From Betaproteobacteria bacterium (GTDB taxonomy: Bacteria > Pseudomonadota > Gammaproteobacteria > Burkholderiales > Thiobacillaceae), in NCBI GenBank assembly GCA_020049415.1, contig JAIFKV010000129.1:8708-72707 (forward strand): a stretch of DNA of 64,000 bases, read 5' to 3'. Position 1 is the first letter of the stretch. Every line of letters starts with the position of its first letter. The notes beneath the pieces were generated by a model. The model searched no databases. It was not told the DNA's origin and worked only from the letters and a program-made list of their open reading frames with translations. A program made the position numbers and the translations under genes. Positions 8,444 through 63,509 of this stretch are shown piece after piece.

Positions 8444-8499
8444 CTAGGAGCCTGTCGGACTTTGGAATCGTCGGCTGCAAAGTCCGACAGGACTCCTGG
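8444..8499. repeat. Short palindromic intergenic repeat (family 2, short form)
   Basis: The sequence is ctaggagcctgtcggactttggaatcgtcggctgcaaagtccgacaggactcctgg. The arms aggagcctgtcggacttt and aaagtccgacaggactcct are inverted repeats with one extra base. It shares both ends and the core ggaatcgtcggctgcaaa with the element at 56725-56819 in opposite orientation. It lies between the PKS-NRPS stop and the methyltransferase start. Confidence 0.6.
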
Positions 8500-15500: not shown

Positions 15501-18500
15501 CTGCGCGGAGATGCGCGCCAGTCTGTCCTGCAATACCTGGCCAGGAGCTGAGCGGCCGACCAGGCACAGCAGTGAATTTCGGGTGCGCAGGGCAATTTCT
15601 TCGGCCAGCAACAGACCAATACCACCGCCGCCGCCACTAATGAGATAAACGCCATCGTCCCGCCAGAGGGATTCCTGCTGTGAGTCGCGCGGCAACAGCA
15701 GTTCCCGCCACGCCCGCACTTGCCGCTGGCCGCCTTGGTAGCGCACCTGTGCATCAGCACTGGCCTGCTCCAGCCGCAACAGATCGGCCAGATTCGTGAC
15801 CTCGTCCGCCAACGCGATCAATTGAAAACGCAGCGTCGGATGCTCCAATTGCGCTGTACGCAGCAAGCCGGAAAATCCCTCGAACAGACGCGCTTCCCCA
15901 GCCAACGGGACAACCACCTGAATCAGCGCGCTGGTCGGACGATCCCGCAACAAGGCCTGGATCATGCCGAGAAGTTCCTCTGCGTAGGCCGTGTAGCGCT
16001 GGTGTATGGGTGATTCCTCAGCCGCGCCGCGATGATCCAGTATCCGCAACTCAACCGGGGCGAGCGCACTCGCCACAATTTCGCCAATCAGCTCGCCCTC
16101 ACTTCCGGCACCGCCGTCTTGCCTGCGCCGAGTTCTGGCAGCGTAATGATCCGGCTCGCACAAAACCACCCATATCCGCGCCACCGCCGACATCGTCGGC
16201 AGGGCCGGGCTCAGCCGCCAGTCGGGTGCAAACAGCAGGGGCGGCGGTTTACTCGGGCTGGATAGGTGGGCGACGCGCGCAAGTTGAGTTGTCGATGCGC
16301 CCGTCGCAGCCGTTTGACTTGGCACCCAATAATGCTGTCGGGCAAATGGATAGGTGGGAAGGCTGATTTTGACCGGCAAGCGTCTCTCTACCCACAAGCG
16401 ATGCCAATCCACCGTCTTGCCTTCGGCCCATTGTGCCGCCAGTTGATTGACCCATGGCGACGCCTGGTTCTTGCCACGACCCTGCACCCCCTCGGGCCCT
16501 GCCGATGCAGACAGCAGGGCGTCCAGACCATCAAGCAGGCCTTGGCGATCAACCGCCACCACGACTACCCGGACTTCAAAGGCCTCACGCCCCAGTTGCA
16601 GGCCGGCAGCAACCGCCGGCAGCGCCGTCTCATCGAGCGTGTCCAGCGCCTGCCGCATCCGCGCCAGGGCTTCCCGCAACTGCAGCGGATCGCGTGCCGA
16701 AAAGGGAAACACGCCCGGCAGGGCAACAGTGAAGACAGTCTCGGGGCGAACCGGCGCGGGGAAATACTCCTCGATCACCAGATGGGCGTTGGCCCCTCCC
16801 GCGCCGAAGGAGGACAGGCCGGCGATACGGGGCCTGACTTTCCCGCCGGCATTCTCGCGGGACGGCGGCCAGGGCTGAAGACTGCGCTGCACGACAAAGG
16901 GGGTGGCGGCAAAATCGATGTGCGGATTGAGCCGCTCGCTGTGCAGAGAAGGTACGAGTTGACCATGCTGTAGTTGCAGCAGAAGTTTGGTCAGGCCGGC
17001 GATGCCGGCGGCGCTCTCCGCATGGCCAATATTCGATTTCACCGAACCGATGGCGCACGCCATGCCACCGGTTTCACCGCCAAAGGCACGGCTCAGGGCG
17101 GCAATCTCGATGGGGTCGCCCAAGCGGGTGCCGGTGCCATGCGCTTCGATATAACTGACCTGTGCCGGGTTGACGTTTGCCCGGGCCATGGCGCGGACGA
17201 TCACGGCTTCCTGAGCGTGAGGATTCGGCACGGCGTAGCCATTGGTCTTGCCACCATGATTGAGGGCGGAACCGCGAATTACCGCGTAGATCCTGTCACC
17301 GTCGGCCTCAGCCTGCGCCAGCGGCTTCAGCAGCACCGCACCGACGCCTTCGCCCGGCACATAGCCGTCGCCACCTTCGCCGAAGCTCTCGCAACGCCCC
17401 TTGCTTGAGGTAAAGCGGCCTTGCGCCAGCGCCAGGTATTTGTTCGGATGCAGCGTGAGATTAACGCCCCCCGCCAGAGCCGCTTCGCAACTGCCGGCAC
17501 GCAGGCTCTCGCAAGCCAGGTGAATGGCCGTCAGTGAGGAGGAGCACATGCTGTCCACCGCCAGGCTGGGGCCATGGAAATTGCAGAAATAGGAAACCCG
17601 GTTGGCGATGGACGCGGCGCTGCCAGCGAGCGCCAGAGGCTCGCCACGCTGGGTGCTCTCGGCGCCGTACAACTGATATTCCTCATACATCACCCCGACG
17701 AAAACCCCGACGTTCGCCCCTGTCAGCGGGGCTTGCGCGGGTGACAGAGCGGCGCGGGTATAGCCCGCGTCTTCGAGGGTTTCCCAGGCGCATTGCAGAA
17801 ACAGGCGCTCCTGAGGGTCAAGATAGGCGGCCTCACGTGGCGCAATGTTGAAAAACTGCGGGTCGAAACAATCGTAGTCGTCAATGAATCCGCCCCACTT
17901 GCTGTTGGTCTTGCCAGGCGCGCCGCGTATCGGGTCGTAATAGGCGGAATGATCCCAGCGGCTAGCCGGTACTTCACTGATGCTGTCACGCCCCGCCGCC
18001 AGATTGGCCCAGAACGTCTGTAGATTGCTGGCGCCAGGGTAGCGCCCGGCAAGACCGATGATGGCAATGTCGCCTGTAGTCTTTTCAGGCTGGCTGTTCT
18101 GCGGTGGCGGCGCAACCTGCGCCACCGCGCCGGAAGCCGCTGTGCCGCCCCCCGTGATCCGCGCCACGGCTTGCGGGTGATTCTGTAAAAAGTAAGCCGC
18201 CAGGGCATGCAGCGTCTGATGATCGAAGAACAGTGTTCTCGGCAACGTGCCGAAATCCAGTTCCAACTGATCAGTCAGGCGGGTAATCATGATGGAATCA
18301 ATGCCATAGGCTTCGAGCGCCGCCGTCGGGTCGATGTCGGACACCGCAAGGCTGGCCTCTGCCGCAACCAAACCTGACAAATAACGCTGCATCCCGGCTG
18401 CCACAGTTTCCGTTGTCGCCGCCACGGATTGAGCCGCGGGATCGACGCGGTGCGCTTGCAGGCGCACCGAAAAGCCACGCACCTGAATGCAGATCTGCCC

Positions 18501-54752: not shown

Positions 54753-56383
54753 TCCTGCACCCCGCTCTCCGAGCCAACCATCTGCCCCAGATCAAGAGTC
54801 ACGGTGCGATCACTGAGATGCCAAAAACGGTCATCGTGAGTTACAACCACGACCGTTTTGCCGCGCTGCTTCAGTTCTGGCAGGATTTCTGTATAGAAGG
54901 CGGTGCGGAAATGGGCATCCTGGTCGGCGGCCCATTCATCAAAAAAGTAAATCTCCCGGTCTTCGAGCAAAGCGACAATCATCGCCAAGCGCTTGCGTTG
55001 CCCCGTTGACAACTCCTGCGTCGAAAAGCGCCCCGCCTCAAAGCCCACCTTGTCAGACAGCTCCATGCGGGCAATCAGCCGACGAACCTGTTCGGGATCG
55101 ACATGATCGAGTCCATGAAGACGGTCAAACAAATGAAAATCGGGAAATATGCAGGAAAAAAGCTCCCGGTATTCCTGCAACACCTCCGGCGCGAGAGCGA
55201 TCCCATCCACCCTGATACATCCGCTATCCAGTGGGTAAAGACCACTCATAAGCTTGAGCGCAGTAGATTTTCCACTGCCGTTGCCACCCAGCAAAAACAG
55301 CAATTCGCCTCGATGCAACTGCAAACTCCAGGGCCCGGTGGTGAAAGAACTTTCCCGGGCGGGATCCCGATATGAAAATCCAATGCCATCAAACGAGATA
55401 CTGCCAAACCCGCTGAAACACGACGGTGCCGTCAATGTATTCACCCAACCCATTGGGCGACCCTGATCAAGCATGTCCTCCAACTGGTAAACGTGACCCA
55501 ACCCAATACTGGCCCGGGAAAACAACGGTGCTGCCGAGGTAATTGCCGATACCGGACCAACGCAGAAAATTGCGGCCGCAGCGATCTTGTAGATGATGTC
55601 CGTATAACCGCTGAAGAATCCAGGCAGGACAAATATCACTACACCGAGCAAGCCATACAGGAAAGCATTGCTGAACAGCAGCAACACAACCCATTTGCCG
55701 CCGATACCGACGATCAGGGACTGCAAGTCATCGACGATTCGTGTGTAGCGGGCGAACAGCGCATCATTTTTATCCGCATTCAGCCGAATTTCCTGGAACC
55801 CTTCGGTGAAATGCATCAATGAATCCAGCATTTCACCTTCTTGGGCATGCACGGAAACCATGGCGTCATTGAGCGCTTTGCGCCGACTGTAGAAATACAT
55901 CAACGCCAATGCCGTCACACAACAGATCACGACGAAAGAAATCAGCGACAGCGACGCGATATAAAGCAGACAGAAAACCAGCAGGAACAAGCTCTGCGAC
56001 GCAGCAACCAGCAAAGGAAAATTCTGCGAGAGTTGATTGGTCTCTTGAGCAACCACAGCATACAGACGTCCACGTCCCAAACGCTCCAGGGTACGCAACT
56101 CGGCGCGCCGTATCTTGTCAGCCAGCCGCAAACGAAGTTCCCCCAAGCGACTCTGAAGAAAATCGTTCGCGCGTCGCAAAGAAGCCTGATTAGTCAATAC
56201 ATAGATAGCAAAAGCAAGCAAGTAGAGTATGAACAACTGCGCCCCCACCCGCTCACCCGAGGCGGCCGCTTCCGCTGCCAGGTTGATCAAACCAATCAAT
56301 ACCGCATTGGCCAGTCCCGCAAGACAAGTCACATACAAGGCCCGCGTAACTCCCGCCGGCCTGCTTGACTTAAGCAAACGCAA
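54749..56383 (-). CDS. ABC transporter, fused permease/ATPase (paralogue of the downstream gene; probable heterodimer partner)
   Basis: 544 aa. Walker A is GGNGSGKST, the signature is LSTGQRKRLAM, and Walker B is YFFDEW. The only available start is TTG at 56383, so the start is uncertain. Confidence 0.85.
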   Translation of the reverse strand: MRLLKSSRPAGVTRALYVTCLAGLANAVLIGLINLAAEAAASGERVGAQLFILYLLAFAIYVLTNQASLRRANDFLQSRLGELRLRLADKIRRAELRTLERLGRGRLYAVVAQETNQLSQNFPLLVAASQSLFLLVFCLLYIASLSLISFVVICCVTALALMYFYSRRKALNDAMVSVHAQEGEMLDSLMHFTEGFQEIRLNADKNDALFARYTRIVDDLQSLIVGIGGKWVVLLLFSNAFLYGLLGVVIFVLPGFFSGYTDIIYKIAAAAIFCVGPVSAITSAAPLFSRASIGLGHVYQLEDMLDQGRPMGWVNTLTAPSCFSGFGSISFDGIGFSYRDPARESSFTTGPWSLQLHRGELLFLLGGNGSGKSTALKLMSGLYPLDSGCIRVDGIALAPEVLQEYRELFSCIFPDFHLFDRLHGLDHVDPEQVRRLIARMELSDKVGFEAGRFSTQELSTGQRKRLAMIVALLEDREIYFFDEWAADQDAHFRTAFYTEILPELKQRGKTVVVVTHDDRFWHLSDRTVTLDLGQMVGSESGVQE

Positions 56384-56442
56384 AATATTCAGTTGATTAT
56401 CCTGGACATGAAAAAACTGTAGAGATCCGCAAAGACCTCTAA

Positions 56443-56658
56443 CCCGGATATTTCATGAATTCACACAATGATCCCGCAGGACATTGTTTGCACAAGGAAT
56501 TCCGAAAAGAAGCGGCGTAGTTATTCATACGCACGACTGAGCGGAGTTGTTGGCGCCTTAGCGCTTACTAATTTGGCCTGTCCCTTGCGGGTAGAGCAGG
56601 ATTTCCTGTGCAAACAAGGGACAAGCGATGGCGCGTGAGGATTCATGAAATATCCGGG
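56443..56658. repeat. 216-bp imperfect-palindrome intergenic element (family 1, complete copy), MITE/ERIC-like
   Basis: Perfect 18-bp terminal inverted repeats: cccggatatttcatgaat (56443-56460) and attcatgaaatatccggg (56641-56658). Internal inverted motifs are ttgtttgcacaagga and tcctgtgcaaacaa. A diverged second copy starts at 63817. No transposase ORF. Confidence 0.7.
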
Positions 56659-56724
56659 CTGACAAAACTGGCTTGATACTGACGCACCAATGCACAGCTA
56701 GCATAAACTCGATGAAAATCTGGG

Positions 56725-56819
56725 CTGGGAGCCTGTCGGACTTTGGTCGTCAATAGCGAAAACCGACCCCGGCGCGGTCGATTTGCAGCCGACGATTCCA
56801 AATTCCGACAGACTCCTAG
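56725..56819. repeat. Palindromic intergenic repeat (family 2, long form)
   Basis: The ends ggagcctgtcggactttgg and ccaaattccgacagactcc are imperfect inverted repeats. The element contains tttgcagccgacgattcc, which is the reverse complement of the core of the 8444-8499 element, plus about 40 nt of extra internal sequence. Confidence 0.55.
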
Positions 56820-56882
56820 ACATCCGATGTGAACATAAATGTTCAAAAAACATTTCGTGCCTAAACTTAAAACCGATGACTC

Positions 56883-57671
56883 ATGGCCAATTCTATCTCC
56901 GCACTCGCCATGAATCGAGAAGAAGTTCAGCATCAACTACCCAAAATACAGCCAGGGGATTGTCACCTTTGGCGCCTTTCGCTGGAAGAGTCGGAGAAAG
57001 GCTTGGCCCGACTGACACAATACTTGTCTAGCGAGGAAAGGAAGCGGGCCGAACATTTCCTGGTTCCCGCGCCTCGCCTGCAATACATTGTGACACGCAG
57101 CGCATTACGCCTCTTGCTCGGCAGTTACTTGGGTATCCCTTGTGAAACCATCCAGTTCTGCCTCAACCAATATGGCAAGCCGTCCCTTCCTCCGCCTCTT
57201 GCGCAATTACGTTTCAATGTAAGTCACTCTGGAAAGCTGGCGCTGATCGCGATTTCCAAGGAAGTTGATGTCGGCGTTGATATCGAACACCATCGCTTAC
57301 TGAACGACGGACCAGGCTTGGCGAAGATGATCTTGTGCCAGGAAGACTTGGACCAGTGGTTGGAACTCTCTCCGAATGACCAGTTCCGAGCCTTTTATCA
57401 AGCCTGGACCCGCAAGGAAGCCGTTGCCAAAGCATTAGGTTATGGTCTGACACTCGACTTCAAACACCTGCGAGTCAGTTTTACCCCCACAGCACAAACG
57501 CAGTTGATCAATATTGAGCCCAACTTGGGTGTTGCGCGCGAGTGGACTCTGATTGATATCAATGCCGGGGATGGCTATTCCGCAGCCTTGGCAGCAAGAA
57601 CATCCAAGATCAAACTTATGCAATATATGTTGCCACCAGAATTCCTGTATCGAACACATGTGATTGCATGA
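56883..57671 (+). CDS. Sfp-type 4'-phosphopantetheinyl transferase
   Basis: 262 aa. Motifs are FNVSHSG, VGVDIEH and WTRKEAVAKALG. Divergently oriented from the ABC/PKS operon. Confidence 0.85.
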   Translation: MANSISALAMNREEVQHQLPKIQPGDCHLWRLSLEESEKGLARLTQYLSSEERKRAEHFLVPAPRLQYIVTRSALRLLLGSYLGIPCETIQFCLNQYGKPSLPPPLAQLRFNVSHSGKLALIAISKEVDVGVDIEHHRLLNDGPGLAKMILCQEDLDQWLELSPNDQFRAFYQAWTRKEAVAKALGYGLTLDFKHLRVSFTPTAQTQLINIEPNLGVAREWTLIDINAGDGYSAALAARTSKIKLMQYMLPPEFLYRTHVIA

Positions 57672-58489: not shown

Positions 58490-59455
58490 TCACTTACCTT
58501 TTGTCAGGGATACCGCATTTGCGGGATTTACCCGGTTTCCTGCCTGCGCATCTGAATTAGGACTATCTGCATTCAACAGCAATGGCATGTTGTTTTGTCC
58601 GGTTCCCATGATAATAATCTTGGCATTGGGAGACTTCGCCAACTCCAATGTCGCGTCTATACCCCGCCATTTCAACATTGGAATTTTGCTGGTTTCCTCA
58701 AAAGCTTTGATCCCCTCCGCTTCGATGATCTTCCGCTTCTTTTCTTCCTCTTCCGCCTGTAGACGAAAACCGTAGGACAGTAGACGCTGTTCAAACAAAA
58801 GCTTCTCGACTATCCCTTTTTGCATCTCTGGCGGCAAGTCGAGACTGAGCAACATTACAGTCTCAAAGATAATCGGATGAAACATCTCTACCCGAGTCCT
58901 TACCCGATCATCAATCTCTTCTAGCAGATCTTCTTCGTCCTTGGCATAGATTTCATCTGCAGAATAATTCCCGAGCACCTGACGCAAGGATGAAATCACC
59001 TCCGGCACCACCACCTTTTCCGCAAAATCAGGGCCCAAGTTGCGATGGAGCTCAGGCAAATGAGCAGGATCGATTCGAAAACGAACCGACCACTCAACGA
59101 CGATTTGCATCCCATCCTTCGTCAATAATGTAATTTTGTCGCCAATTTTGTACAGACGGGTGCTGTAAATATAAATTTTATCCCACGGAAACTTCAGATG
59201 AGTTCCATCGCCAAGCACCAAGTCGGACGTGCCACCAAAAAAACGTGACCAGTAAACGCCCTGCTCGCCGGGATATTTTGATACCACGATGTCGCGCCAC
59301 ATTACGACCAGGATAAAAGCCATAATCAGGAGCGTCAGGGTAAAACCGAACCGGTACTTCGACAACCGGCGAGAAAAACCAAGGACAGACTTTTCTTCAA
59401 TAGGAGATGACATTATTGAGTCTTCGGCCGTAGAGACCTTCTCGGCCTTGTTCAT
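58490..59455 (-). CDS. SPFH / band-7 (prohibitin-like) domain membrane protein
   Basis: 321 aa. N-terminal TM helix (FGFTLTLLIMAFILVVMW). SPFH core is VEWSVRFRIDPAHLPELHRNLGPDFAEKVVVPEVISSLRQVLGNYSADEIYA, followed by a coiled-coil-like EEEKKRKIIEAEG. Confidence 0.7.
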   Translation of the reverse strand: MNKAEKVSTAEDSIMSSPIEEKSVLGFSRRLSKYRFGFTLTLLIMAFILVVMWRDIVVSKYPGEQGVYWSRFFGGTSDLVLGDGTHLKFPWDKIYIYSTRLYKIGDKITLLTKDGMQIVVEWSVRFRIDPAHLPELHRNLGPDFAEKVVVPEVISSLRQVLGNYSADEIYAKDEEDLLEEIDDRVRTRVEMFHPIIFETVMLLSLDLPPEMQKGIVEKLLFEQRLLSYGFRLQAEEEEKKRKIIEAEGIKAFEETSKIPMLKWRGIDATLELAKSPNAKIIIMGTGQNNMPLLLNADSPNSDAQAGNRVNPANAVSLTKGK

Positions 59456-59530
59456 GGCATCATCTGATGAAGGAGAAACTCGAGTAACAAAGGTGACAAA
59501 GCGTGATGCTTGGCAGAGTCTCTGCCAAGT

Positions 59531-59698
59531 TCACTTGACGGTTGCCGAAGATGAACGACCAAACAGGACAACCATAACCAAGGAGGCAAGAGGGGTCAGA
59601 AACACGCCGACCATAAGAATGCCCCAAAAGCCAAGGCGGGTATCCTTTCCAAGATAGGCGGCAATCACGCAAAGCAGAATATAGGCAATCCAAAACAT
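59531..59698 (-). CDS. Small hydrophobic protein (two predicted TM helices)
   Basis: Preferred ATG at 59698 (MFWIAYILLCVIAAYLG...GILMVGVFLTPLASLVMVVLF). The listed longer ORF would overlap the upstream gene. No homology recognised. Confidence 0.3.
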   Translation of the reverse strand: MFWIAYILLCVIAAYLGKDTRLGFWGILMVGVFLTPLASLVMVVLFGRSSSATVK

Positions 59699-59747
59699 TA
59701 CCTGACTTCTCCTGAAACAGCAGGAATCTCCGCCCTCCAGCCCAGCA

Positions 59748-60332
59748 TCAGGTAGCCACCCCACTTGTTGCAGACTTAGGCATATTGGTCGCCGTGGCGA
59801 CTTTCATTCCATTGGCAAACTCAGTGCGGAAATAGTCACGCACACGCGTGGCATCAAAATCAAGCAGGGTTCCGCCAGTTTCGAAGTGGGCCGCGAAAAT
59901 CCTGCCAATGGCATAGGTGATCGCTGCCGCGAGAGCGGGTATGGAAGCCACCGAGACTGCATGACCCAACACAGGAATGGCCTTGAGACTACTAAGGGCC
60001 AACATCTTGCCAAGGGTAACGCTACCTAAACTACCTAGCAGTGAAAGCACCGCAGCCTTAGCTAAATCCTTGCGATAACCCGCACCGTATATATCCGCCA
60101 ATTCCTTCACCAACTTAAGCTCAACGGTGGTTATCGCCACCAGTTCAAGCATCGGCACAGGTAAAACCCCAGCACCGGCAGACCATAGCATGTTGCGCTT
60201 GATGGCTTCAGCCACAGCGCATCGCCGAGCCTCATGGGAAAGATCTTCCATACCGACTTGAGCTTCACCACTTTCACCCTCGCCAGCAATCACCTCTTCT
60301 ACCACGACAGCATCCTGATCCGCGTTTTTCAT
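59748..60332 (-). CDS. Hypothetical protein, DUF697/YcjF-like
   Basis: Preferred ATG at 60332; the listed TTG at 60350 is less likely. The hydrophobic/amphipathic region AGAGVLPVPMLELVAITTVELKLVKELADIYG...AIPVLGHAVSVASIPALAAAITYAIGRIF resembles DUF697 as I recall it. Confidence 0.35.
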   Translation of the reverse strand: MKNADQDAVVVEEVIAGEGESGEAQVGMEDLSHEARRCAVAEAIKRNMLWSAGAGVLPVPMLELVAITTVELKLVKELADIYGAGYRKDLAKAAVLSLLGSLGSVTLGKMLALSSLKAIPVLGHAVSVASIPALAAAITYAIGRIFAAHFETGGTLLDFDATRVRDYFRTEFANGMKVATATNMPKSATSGVAT

Positions 60333-60395
60333 TAAATTCGCCCGTGACAAAAATATAATCGGTTTTGACTATATCAACTAACATCTTGATGGGCA

Positions 60396-61493
60396 ATGCA
60401 GAGCATTGTCCAATCAGGGTGCCGCCATCTATTCGCCTCACTACCGGTCCACACCTGCCTGATACCTGCAGAGACCAAGAGTCAAAGTAAAAAGCGCACG
60501 GATTCTCGGAAAAAAGCGTCTCGGCGGGCTTCGGGCGGAGTTGCTCAGACAAGTGAGTACCTGAAGTCCGTGATTCAACTTCACAACCGCACGCATCGTA
60601 AAGTGACTTCCCTGCAGCACATCATACCTATCCGACCAGGATCAGCGCGCACGCCAATTTTCCTGATTCACAGTATCGCGGGGGAATTGACTTGGGCTAA
60701 ACATCTTGCCCGTTACATGCCGCCAGAACAGCCTCTTTATTGCTTCGCAGCGCCCGGCATCAATTCGGATGCACCGTTCTTTTTTAGCCTCGAAGCCATG
60801 GCCGAAGCCTATCTGCGCGACATTCGCAAACAGCAACCACATGGCCCTTACCTAGTCGGCGGTTATTCCATGGGCGGAGTAATAGCCTTCGAAATTGCGC
60901 GACAGTTGCAAGCCTGCGGGGAAGAAATTGGGCTGATGGTCATGATCGACGCTTTTGCACCGCACCCCAAGCACGGAGAAAGCATAACGTCCTGGAGCCG
61001 CAACGGACTTCTGATGCAAGTCATCTGCAATCAACTGGCATTGCAATGGAATTCTGACCAACTCCTGCCGCCCGACGCACTTCCGCCTTTGCCCTTTACT
61101 GAACATAGCTCATACGCAGCGCAATATTTGTTAAATCACTGCAAGGTTCCTCATACGCAACAGGCATTGCAAAACTACTTACGTCGCTGCCAATGCATGA
61201 TGCGTGTTCATGCCCAATTACTTGCCGACTACAGACCTACCCAGCTTGATCGGGAAGTCGATGTATTGTTGTTTCGAAATACGCTAGGACTGATCGGCCA
61301 TAACAGCGCACTAAATCTTCCCGTTTTGCCGGATAGCCAGCGTAATCCCCCCCATTGCTGGGAAAATTTCCTGAAATCGCCCCCGGTCTTGATTGATGTA
61401 CAGGAAGAACACTTTATGTTGAGCAGCGAACCTGCGATGGAATTCATCAGCCAAGCACTGGAAATACATTTACAGCTAAAAACCCGCCATTGA
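60396..61493 (+). CDS. Stand-alone thioesterase-domain alpha/beta-hydrolase
   Basis: TE-type motifs are PIFLIHSIAGE and the nucleophile elbow GYSMGGVIAFEIARQL, followed by MIDAFAP. The N-terminal 60 aa or so are basic and low-complexity, so the true start may be internal (for example GTG 60570). Confidence 0.65.
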   Translation: MQSIVQSGCRHLFASLPVHTCLIPAETKSQSKKRTDSRKKASRRASGGVAQTSEYLKSVIQLHNRTHRKVTSLQHIIPIRPGSARTPIFLIHSIAGELTWAKHLARYMPPEQPLYCFAAPGINSDAPFFFSLEAMAEAYLRDIRKQQPHGPYLVGGYSMGGVIAFEIARQLQACGEEIGLMVMIDAFAPHPKHGESITSWSRNGLLMQVICNQLALQWNSDQLLPPDALPPLPFTEHSSYAAQYLLNHCKVPHTQQALQNYLRRCQCMMRVHAQLLADYRPTQLDREVDVLLFRNTLGLIGHNSALNLPVLPDSQRNPPHCWENFLKSPPVLIDVQEEHFMLSSEPAMEFISQALEIHLQLKTRH

Positions 61494-61537: not shown

Positions 61538-63502
61538 TCAAGTCAGATGACGCAAATCGACAGCTCTTACCAAGGGTGAATCGGCCCAAGTCTGAGTTGG
61601 AGAGGTTTCCCGTTGGACGAAGAAGCGATGCTGAAGGGCGATGGTAAGCAGAAAAATGAAAGCCTGATTTTCTTTGGTGCTGATCTCGGCTGACGGGCTG
61701 TTCAAAATCTTGTTGCTGAGAGCACGTACAAATTTCCCGTCCAAGAAAGGCATCTTGGCGATCTCATCGGAACTAAGCAGCAGTTCCAGGTAGTCTGGCC
61801 GACAGTCCACGAAGGCAGCGCTGTCTGGTGCTCGGTAAGGAAACTTTCGTTTGTTCACGATAGAGCTTGGCAATCGTGCACGGAAGGCCTGCCGCAGAAG
61901 TCGCTTCTCATCGAAACCGTCGTCAAAACGCAAGTTGATCGAGGCAGCCAGTCTCACAACAGCGGGGTCAAGGAAGGGGCAGCGGTTTTCCACACCATTT
62001 GCCAGTCCCATGCGTTCCCCCTGGGTCGACAACAGATAGCCCGCCAGAAGGGTGCGGAACTCAAGCCATTGGGCCTTGTGTATCGACGTCATTTCGGCAT
62101 AACCGGGCGTCGCCGCGACCAAAGCCGAGATAGCCTCGAATGGATTGCCGGCGTTCTTGATGAGCCGCGCTGAGAATCGTCCGTTCTGAAAGCGCAACTC
62201 ATGGGAAAACAACCCTGGCAGGCGTTCCTGTGAAAATTGTTGATACAACCCGGTGAGGGCGGCAACATCCTGAGGACCGTAATGTTCTAAATGCGGATAA
62301 AGGCGCGCTAACTGAATGCGGCGCTTTTCTTCATCGTGATTCAACCAGTCCTGTCTGAGCAGTGTTTCCTTGAACAAGTCATAACCCAGGAAAGCCTCGT
62401 CCGCACCTTCCCCAGACAGCACTACCTTGATTCCCGCCTGCCTGGTACGGGCGGATAGCAGATACATAGGAACAAAGGCGCTCCGAAAGGCGGGGATTTC
62501 GGCGTGCCAGGCGGCGGCTGGAAGGCTATCGACAATATCGCGATGCGTAATTGTCAGTGCGTGATGTCGACTCCCGAGAAGGGTCGCCATTTCGTGCTGC
62601 TGGTCTGATTCGTCATATTCCCGGTCGGCAAACTCAACCGAAAAGGTGGACAGAGGATGGGAACTCAGCTCTCCGGCAAGTAAGGCAACAACAGCAGAAT
62701 CAATGCCACCGCTCAGGTAAACGCCAACTTCGACGTCGCTTCGCAGGCGCAACGCCACGCTTTCTCGCAGCCGCTGTTGAATCAGATCCAAAGCTTCTGC
62801 TTCACTACCAACAGTGATATTGCCTCCGAAATCGAGCGTTTCATAAGGCATAACCTCGGTTTTCCCGGCGCGGCAGCGCAGCCAGTGACTCATGGATAGG
62901 CTATGTATGCCATGGAACCCGGTCTGTTCCGGTAACGGCGTCCAAACGGCAACGATTGAGGCCAGTTGCCTAGGATCATGCTCAAAAACAAAACCGGGGA
63001 ATCTCAGGAAAGCCTTCATCTCTGAGGCAAACAACATCCCCTCGCCACAGAAAGCGTAGAACAGGGGACGCTTGCCATAACGATCCCGTGCCAGAATGAG
63101 TTCATCACGATCCCGGTCGTACAGGGCAAAGGCAAAGCCTCCATTGAGGCGGGGAAGGCAGGCAGCCCCCCAGTGAAGCCAAGCCTGTAAAAGTACTTCT
63201 GTATCGGAATGAGTGGAAAAATTACAGCCTAGCGCTTCGAGTTCAACGCGCAATTCCAAATAGTTGTAAATCTCGCCGTTGTAACAAAGCCAGTAGCGTT
63301 GTGTCGGGTCGGAGATGGGTTGAATACCCGCTTCGATGTCGATAATCGACAAACGGGTGGATCCCAAGCCACAGCGACTGTCTACGACATATCCCGTGGC
63401 ATCGGGCCCCCGATGGGCAATGGCTCGCAACATGCTCAACAGGGTGTCGGGAAACGCCTCTACCGCCAAGGACGGGTGGAAGAAGCCGGCAATGCCGCAC
63501 AT
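61538..63502 (-). CDS. Asparagine synthetase (glutamine-hydrolysing)-like amidotransferase
   Basis: Preferred start gives MCGIAGFF, the Ntn-amidotransferase Cys2 nucleophile. The PP-loop is YLSGGIDSAVVALLA. The start lies 8 nt after the stop of the upstream ACP gene. The listed ORF start at 63547 adds 15 aa and overlaps the ACP gene. Confidence 0.85.
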   Translation of the reverse strand: MCGIAGFFHPSLAVEAFPDTLLSMLRAIAHRGPDATGYVVDSRCGLGSTRLSIIDIEAGIQPISDPTQRYWLCYNGEIYNYLELRVELEALGCNFSTHSDTEVLLQAWLHWGAACLPRLNGGFAFALYDRDRDELILARDRYGKRPLFYAFCGEGMLFASEMKAFLRFPGFVFEHDPRQLASIVAVWTPLPEQTGFHGIHSLSMSHWLRCRAGKTEVMPYETLDFGGNITVGSEAEALDLIQQRLRESVALRLRSDVEVGVYLSGGIDSAVVALLAGELSSHPLSTFSVEFADREYDESDQQHEMATLLGSRHHALTITHRDIVDSLPAAAWHAEIPAFRSAFVPMYLLSARTRQAGIKVVLSGEGADEAFLGYDLFKETLLRQDWLNHDEEKRRIQLARLYPHLEHYGPQDVAALTGLYQQFSQERLPGLFSHELRFQNGRFSARLIKNAGNPFEAISALVAATPGYAEMTSIHKAQWLEFRTLLAGYLLSTQGERMGLANGVENRCPFLDPAVVRLAASINLRFDDGFDEKRLLRQAFRARLPSSIVNKRKFPYRAPDSAAFVDCRPDYLELLLSSDEIAKMPFLDGKFVRALSNKILNSPSAEISTKENQAFIFLLTIALQHRFFVQRETSPTQTWADSPLVRAVDLRHLT

Positions 63503-63509
63503 GGCGCGA

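Follow-up and report, generated by a model that had tools for sequence, protein, structure and literature searches.

A probable MITE family in intergenic spacers of a betaproteobacterial trans-AT polyketide synthase cluster

The trans-AT PKS locus and two copies of a palindromic element

The window analysed here, a single stretch of 64,000 nucleotides, carries a trans-AT PKS cluster whose large genes all lie on the minus strand. Two megasynthase genes (8556-28628 and 29745-50717, minus strand) have an FMO-like gene between them and are followed, on the same strand, by an AT/enoyl-reductase gene (50722-53100) and two ABC exporter genes (53097-56383), the first of which spans 54749-56383 with a start that is probably at 56338. 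A PPTase gene (56883-57671, plus strand) comes next, then solute-binding-like, Band 7 and DUF697 genes, a thioesterase gene (60396-61493, plus strand) and an asparagine-synthase-like gene (61538-63547, minus strand). Upstream of the latter is a free-standing ORF of 92 amino acids (63510-63788, minus strand) that was originally read as an ACP and has no Pfam match. The part of the window below 8.5 kb carries a beta-branching cassette (HMG-CoA-synthase-like, KS and ECH genes), a P450 gene and a gene for an FkbM-type methyltransferase. The original prediction had remarked that no regulator gene is visible in the window, and a Pfam search of the window likewise found none. The second PKS gene contains a tandem 251-nt duplication (32479-32729 and 32785-33035, 88% identical and 306 nt apart), which is probably a doubled carrier-protein domain. 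GC content is 60-65% in the PKS genes and 48-53% in the accessory block and flanks; the shift falls within the ABC genes (~52-56 kb) and not at the element copy described next.

The host can be placed through MnmA, which is encoded near the cluster in the related contig L001 and whose best named relatives, at ~78% identity, are from Gallionellaceae, Hydrogenophilaceae and Parasulfuritortus. These relatives indicate that the host is an uncultured betaproteobacterium of that neighbourhood, and its population is found in lake-water and microbial-mat metagenomes.

A complete copy of the element, referred to here as copy A, occupies 56443-56658 (216 bp, no strand assigned) and is recognised by its terminal inverted repeats, by a family profile and by its predicted RNA fold. 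The perfect 18-bp terminal inverted repeats that had been predicted are the outer part of longer repeats of 24 nt that are 92% complementary (CCCGGATATTTCATGAATTCACAC / GTGAGGATTCATGAAATATCCGGG, at 56443-56466 on the plus strand and 56635-56658 on the minus strand; pair I1). Inverted motifs inside the element, also predicted, were located as two pairs, one of 17 nt at 88% (56484-56500 / 56601-56617) and a second at 56576-56587 / 56615-56626. The subterminal and internal inverted motifs (56484-56617; I3 and I5) extend the terminal pairing into a single long foldback. On its left the copy is bordered by the tetranucleotide CTAA (56439-56442), a putative target-site duplication, and on its right by CTGA (56659-56662), which is one transition from CTAA and is read as the decayed counterpart. 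The two ends of copy A are the only places in the 64-kb window that have the 20-nt end motif, which was found in none of 100 shuffles. The family profile scores copy A at 222.7 bits (E = 1e-66), and orthologous copies are 95% identical to it in L001 and 100% identical in L002/L003. No ORF of 80 or more amino acids lies inside 56443-56658, and a spurious ORF of 97 amino acids (56643-56936, minus strand) overlaps only the last 16 nt.

The spacer that holds copy A is divergent, with the first ABC exporter gene (minus strand) on one side and the PPTase gene (plus strand) on the other. The copy is indeed directly upstream of the exporter operon, as had been proposed, with the context amended in that the spacer is shared divergently with the PPTase gene and also holds a second repeat. 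The predicted distance of 60 nt from the exporter gene is close to the 59 nt that separate copy A from the furthest possible TTG start (56383), but it does not hold for the ABC start called on related contigs (529 amino acids, equivalent to 56338), from which the copy is ~104 nt away. The second repeat is an unrelated, high-copy palindrome of ~100 bp at 56723-56822, with arms CTGGGAGCCTGTCGGACTTTGG / CCAAATTCCGACAGACTCCTAG (pair I2). This second repeat, whose arms read CTAGGAGYCTGTCGGAMTTTGG, also has a 56-bp hairpin version at 8444-8499, shortly after the end of the last PKS gene. In the DNA metagenome run X1 the summed depth over this second repeat is 490-1245, against ~5-6 for its flanks, and the repeat is also strong in metatranscriptome contigs, with a summed bin depth of up to 269.

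A diverged second copy in the same orientation had been predicted to begin at 63817, 29 nt before the starter ACP gene, and to leave the window. This copy B is real, but it begins at 63816 and is 27 nt from the ACP ATG (63788). It is interrupted by the window end (63816-64000) and is 80% identical to copy A over the 185 nt inside the window. Contigs that reach beyond the window (L001-L006), found by way of the 92-amino-acid ORF, contain copy B complete, with both terminal repeats and a length of 215 bp (2012-2226 in L002). Copy B has ATAG (63812-63815) as its left flank; on the right, L002 reads TTAG and L001 reads TTAA. On the side away from the ACP gene, copy B closely follows an M48/TPR peptidase gene located beyond the end of the window. 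The joining of the window-type copy B to its own flank was confirmed in four further metagenome runs (X2, X7, X11 and X13).

Two versions of copy B occupy the one site. The window type is present in L002, L004, L005 and L006, and a divergent version is present in L001; between L001 (9759-9973) and L002 (2012-2226) the element is 79% identical and the flanks are ~99% identical. The differences in L001 begin and end within the element, apart from a 3-bp indel where the right-hand target duplication lies; the two versions have in common that their left end lacks 1 nt. In contrast, copy A is 95% identical between the same two contigs. The version in L001 may possibly have arisen by re-insertion at a hot spot or by gene conversion from another copy, or it may be an assembly chimera.

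A dispersed family with shared ends and YTAR flanks

A scan of metagenome contigs for both end motifs at the right spacing returned 38 stretches, and BLAST and end-motif searches identified 13 of these as true relatives. Full-length copies of type I (L045/L020, L029, L042 and L039) are 70-85% identical to copy A. A type II subfamily of ~200 bp, found on five contigs of one assembly (L040, L024, L015, L016 and L027), has a mutual identity of 86-92% and matches type I in ~110 nt of its left part and ~60 nt of its right part, while the type III elements of L012, L028 and L048 have only the 20-nt ends in common with the family. All full-length copies measure 200-218 bp. Common to the family are its ends (CCCGGATATTTCATGAATTC...), conserved terminal inverted repeats of 20-24 nt whose core (ATTTCATGAATT) is invariant across 17 members; the interiors differ between subfamilies, and some are unrelated to one another.

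All copies of the family are intergenic, and no fewer than 13 additional loci, next to housekeeping genes, are occupied. Relatives lie at hisC/hisB, trpC, two GH57 genes, DUF2201/SoxY, an ECF sigma factor gene, atpI, MqsA/HerA-like genes and an ABC-F gene, and their orientation relative to neighbouring genes is mixed (about 6 vs 3). The carrier of type II is Nitrosomonas-like, its ABC-F protein being 88% identical to proteins of Nitrosomonas sp. Between copies A and B the identity is 80-81%, and between A and the copy in L045 it is 85%; because A and B are no nearer to each other than to copies elsewhere, they represent independent insertions. An origin of B by local duplication of A was also considered and is rejected on the star-like identity matrix.

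A larger, AT-rich element of 842 bp with the family's terminal repeats was observed at 6022-6863 of L016 (the same as 1998-2839 of L056/L057), between the flanks GTAA and TTAG. A Pfam search of its ORFs for transposase remnants gave no match, and the 842-bp element may represent either a decayed parent or a non-autonomous relative of larger size. No autonomous IS with the element's ends was found in species-representative genomes, in plasmids, in viral contigs or in this 842-bp relative. An interior-motif scan of the species-representative genomes yielded five chance matches and no family copy, and neither BLAST of the element against plasmids nor an end-motif scan of viral contigs gave a match. 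Literature searches returned no published MITE with these properties and no family name, and nothing on the cluster in Gallionellaceae or Nitrosomonas.

The sequences that border the copies are highly regular. Twenty-six of 30 flanks are exactly YTAR (Py-T-A-Pu), and the four exceptions are each one base off. In seven of the 14 complete copies the left and right 4-mers match exactly (CTAG/CTAG, TTAG/TTAG, TTAA/TTAA, CTAA/CTAA), and the flank pairs of the remaining half differ by 1-2 bases. The insertion targets recorded for IS5 are CTAG, CTAA and TTAG (PMC5493358), and from these together with the YTAR flanks and the half with identical 4-mers we tentatively infer an IS5-like target duplication of 4 bp. 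The alternative of a TA-only duplication, of the IS630/Tc1 type, would readily accommodate the half of the copies in which the flanking 4-mers are not identical. With the outer Y and R independent, however, such a duplication predicts matching pairs in ~1/4 of the copies (~3.5 of 14), against the seven observed. If 4 bp were duplicated and the duplicates decayed as fast as the copies do internally, about half of the pairs would still match, as is the case.

A base-exact empty site was recovered at none of the places where one was sought. The element-free orthologues of the cluster are too diverged to be aligned across the insertion point; at the Nitrosomonas-like ABC-F locus, contigs encoding an identical protein carry the same insertions, and a 92% relative without them has different flanks. 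Around mnmA in the host relatives L050-L053 (MnmA 85-87% identical) no copies were found, and these relatives are no longer syntenic with the cluster side.

Transposition of the element would take place in trans, with a DDE transposase from a full-length IS that has the same ends moving it from place to place. Such an enzyme would cut at Py-T-A-Pu and duplicate 4 bp, as IS5 does. The foldback would be retained since both ends and the subterminal regions need to be recognised, and/or since the hairpin is tolerated or favoured in transcripts.

A different mode of spread was also weighed, namely that the element is an extragenic palindrome of the REP/REPIN type, dispersed by a RAYT (IS200/IS605-like) enzyme and not as a cut-and-paste MITE. 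High copy number in intergenic regions, strong hairpin potential and the failure to find a DDE transposase partner would all be compatible with that mode. It is nevertheless highly improbable given the long terminal inverted repeats of 20-24 nt, interiors that differ between subfamilies, constant YTAR flanks on both sides that are identical in half of the copies, and the existence of the 842-bp relative with the same ends. The element, at 200-216 bp, is also well above the size of typical REP doublets.

Copy number was assessed by placing Logan contigs of two DNA metagenomes (X1 and X2) on the locus, with depth summed over the community. In X1 the unique flanks have a depth of 4.9-6.3, and the element has a depth of 200-260 at 90% likeness and up to 1070 at 80%; the community-summed depth over the element is 40-170 times that of the unique flanks. 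Distinct contigs that match the element at 80% or more number 39 in X1 and 35 in X2. Most of the longest matching contigs have a host-like depth of 3-9, which, judged from contig depth, fits the presence of many copies in one population genome. Depths of 89-214 were reached by a few matching contigs, most of them variants lacking the central 55-72 nt. Short variants in which the central 55-72 nt (56541-56614 and 63910-63975 in the window) are replaced by 4-18 nt are common in several metagenomes and in metatranscriptome contigs, some of them at depths of 60-214, well above the host-like copies. The original prediction had named dozens of copies scattered at unrelated loci as the observation that would speak against specific regulation, and 35-39 contigs per metagenome, together with the unrelated loci described above, are what was found.

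The foldback, clusters without the element, and expression

When folded as RNA, copy A forms a single long hairpin of -89.8 kcal/mol, compared with -54.1 +/- 4.4 in shuffles (z = -8.1); folded as DNA, the element has z = -7.2. A consensus structure over 12 copies of types I and II comprises 53 pairs with 92% of cells paired; shuffling the columns lowers this share to 84.4%, and sliding the partners lowers it to 29-47%. Covariation analysis, which had been suggested from the outset, was run on the same 12 copies and showed that the foldback pairs are compensated beyond shuffles: changes on both sides occur in 22 of the 53 pairs, against 11.9 +/- 1.8 in shuffles, with 0 of 500 shuffles reaching 22, and since many of the paired changes separate two subfamilies they represent few events. 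The long foldback is clearly maintained by compensatory changes. MITE families usually keep their foldback (PMC10969869), and a maintained foldback alone is no sign of a regulatory RNA. A search of the whole window with Rfam 15 at gathering thresholds gave no match, in agreement with the earlier impression that the element is not a known riboswitch; relaxed settings over the spacer returned only PYLIS_3 at E = 4, a chance match.

Orthologous trans-AT PKS clusters were reached through homologues of the PPTase, on L054/L055 (63% identical) and on an NCBI contig (78% identical). Their gene order is that of the window: PKS, AT-ER, ABC, ABC, PPTase, Band 7, DUF697, TE, AsnB-like and ACP. At both corresponding sites of L054/L055 there is no BLAST or profile-HMM match to the element and no end motif within five mismatches; the ABC/PPTase spacer is 247 bp long and the ACP upstream region 426 bp. 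The NCBI contig has only 54 bp between its ABC and PPTase genes. When copy A and the second repeat are subtracted from the ABC/PPTase spacer of the window, 228 bp are left, compared with the 247 bp in L054. The same gene order without the element indicates that both copies were added after the cluster had reached its present order. The copies therefore do not mark junctions between cluster sub-blocks, as had been suggested as a corollary of their being selfish repeats; L054/L055 and the NCBI contig have the same order and are element-free, and a reading of the copies as scars of sub-block joining is rejected on that ground. Both copies are kept in L001 and L002, which are 97.1% identical overall (~3% diverged). 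Taken together, these comparisons show A and B to be two separate insertions, both of them old, in spacers of the trans-AT PKS cluster. Because both copies are common to strains ~3% apart, the cluster has been in the host lineage long enough to gather selfish DNA of the host type.

The surroundings of the cluster also vary. In L054 the ACP end of the cluster adjoins tRNA-Val (16972-17048), acyl-CoA synthetase and alcohol dehydrogenase genes, and in the window lineage it adjoins the M48/TPR peptidase gene and mnmA; host relatives with 85-87% identical MnmA have no cluster at that place. With these differing neighbourhoods and cluster-free relatives the cluster looks horizontally mobile, and it occupies different genomic neighbourhoods in different hosts.

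The second of the two explanations originally offered was a shared structured leader or operator region that co-regulates both operons. In its strict form, in which the cluster had from the start an operator or a structured, riboswitch-like RNA leader specific to it, this explanation would account for the position of the element upstream of two operons of one cluster, for the strong predicted structure (z = -8.1) and for a window in which no regulator gene is seen. The family is, however, present at unrelated housekeeping loci in other organisms, and orthologous clusters do without it; Rfam has no match for it at gathering thresholds, the relaxed one at E = 4 being due to chance, and its structure is a simple foldback of two halves between target-site-like flanks. 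The chance that such a leader is what the element represents is close to negligible. Missing from sister clusters and dispersed at unrelated places, the element is thus no dedicated regulator, and co-regulation is unsupported as its origin or purpose. The first explanation, a selfish repeat of the MITE or ERIC kind, is instead borne out by the dispersed copies, the YTAR flanks, the dozens of contigs per metagenome and the element-free orthologues. The element is very probably a non-autonomous DNA transposon, a MITE of ~200-216 bp that belongs to a family of Nitrosomonadales-type betaproteobacteria.

A consensus scan identified one sigma-70-like promoter match (TCTACA-16-GATAAT, 56396-56423, minus strand) between copy A and the ABC gene, outside the element. 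A 25-nt block (CAAACGCAAAATATTCAGTTGATTA, 56375-56399), situated just upstream of the first ABC gene, overlaps the -10 of this match, which is the only promoter-like one near the exporter operon; 23/25 positions of the block are conserved in the distant orthologue L054/L055. The match and the block are a candidate for the native promoter or operator of the exporter operon. Because the match lies downstream of copy A, in sequence that is kept by the MITE-free orthologue, copy A is probably outside the leader and upstream of the native promoter. No sigma-70-like sites are predicted inside copy A or copy B, and a terminator scan inside the copies detected only weak terminator-like hairpins, in A.

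For copy B the situation is of another kind, in that only 27 nt separate it from the ACP ATG, so that the transcript must begin within copy B or traverse it from the peptidase gene. Its hairpin (-90 kcal/mol, predicted) could change the mRNA stability or the processing of the ACP transcript, and copy B may in this way have an incidental effect on expression. Any effect of the copies on the cluster would be a by-product. Metatranscriptome contigs at the locus have a depth of 2-10, are unstranded and leave copy B uncovered, and transcription of the region is weak. Between 55.8 and 64 kb, freshwater metatranscriptomes cover the Band 7 and DUF697 genes (58490-60350) best, at a depth of up to ~10, and the exporter, PPTase and AsnB-like genes are barely detected.

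It is against this background that an exapted MITE should be considered, i.e., an element of transposon origin whose cluster copies now act as a shared promoter/operator or as a 5' hairpin coupling the starter-supply operon with the exporter/assembly-line operon. Both copies are oriented alike relative to the downstream minus-strand gene, the ACP transcript starts in copy B or crosses it, the foldback is conserved with compensatory changes, and both copies are retained in strains that are ~3% diverged (L001 vs L002). MITEs with promoters, IHF sites and effects on RNA processing are known as well, Correia being an example (PMC10969869). These points are to be set against the orthologous clusters that have the same gene order and no element, the lack of any predicted sigma-70-like promoter within either copy, and the location of the sole promoter-like match of the exporter operon downstream of copy A, in a stretch conserved in the MITE-free orthologue. 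In addition, at only 80% identity A and B resemble each other no more than they resemble copies at housekeeping loci, and elsewhere the orientation relative to genes is mixed. Exaptation of the cluster copies is on balance unlikely. It is similarly unlikely that the family is active and structurally selected, that the cluster copies are more than passengers and that copy B is an exchangeable 5' hairpin/promoter cassette that tunes the starter operon. The 79%-identical versions of copy B between ~99% identical flanks would then mean repeated hot-spot re-insertion or overwriting by gene conversion, and the compensated foldback and the 27 nt to the ACP start would fit such a role.

With the MITE reading preferred, there are practical consequences for work on this cluster. 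In the annotation of this polyketide cluster the two repeats should not be taken as operators, riboswitches or cluster boundaries. For heterologous expression it is relevant that the starter operon has copy B immediately in front of its first gene, where a strong hairpin may affect transcription or mRNA stability.

Relation to known mobile elements

The element has much in common with bacterial MITEs in general, which are small and non-coding, have terminal inverted repeats and short flanking direct repeats that decay, occur in multiple intergenic copies and are predicted to give stable stem-loop transcripts (PMC10969869). Unlike them it is not AT-rich, having a GC content of ~50%. No sequence relation was found to any named family, with Correia and ERIC compared by description. 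To our knowledge, the ends of the element (CCCGGATATTTC...) bear no likeness to those of IS5 itself. The likeness to IS5 and to IS5-derived MITEs resides in the Py-T-A-Pu target (CTAG, CTAA, TTAG, TTAA) and the apparent 4-bp duplication (PMC5493358), whereas no IS5-family transposase is linked to the element.

The comparison with ERIC, which was drawn when the element was first noticed, rests on a shared form, that of an imperfect palindrome in transcribed intergenic regions. ERIC is ~127 bp long and confined to Enterobacteriaceae and Vibrio, whereas the element is 216 bp long and resides in Nitrosomonadales-type betaproteobacteria; as far as we know from its description, the sequence of ERIC is unrelated. 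The Correia element (NEMIS) of Neisseria is likewise a betaproteobacterial MITE, of 100-160 bp with terminal repeats of roughly 26 nt. It duplicates TA only, and on comparison by description we know of no sequence similarity between its ends and those of the element. The two are alike in their TA-containing insertion sites, in being found often just upstream of genes and in co-transcription as a hairpin. They differ in host group, and also in that Correia has documented promoters and an IHF site (PMC10969869) and none is predicted in the element. The family to which copies A and B belong is an undescribed MITE family of Nitrosomonadales-type betaproteobacteria that comprises three or more subfamilies as well as short deletion variants; it is of a kind already known, and as such it is an ordinary finding.
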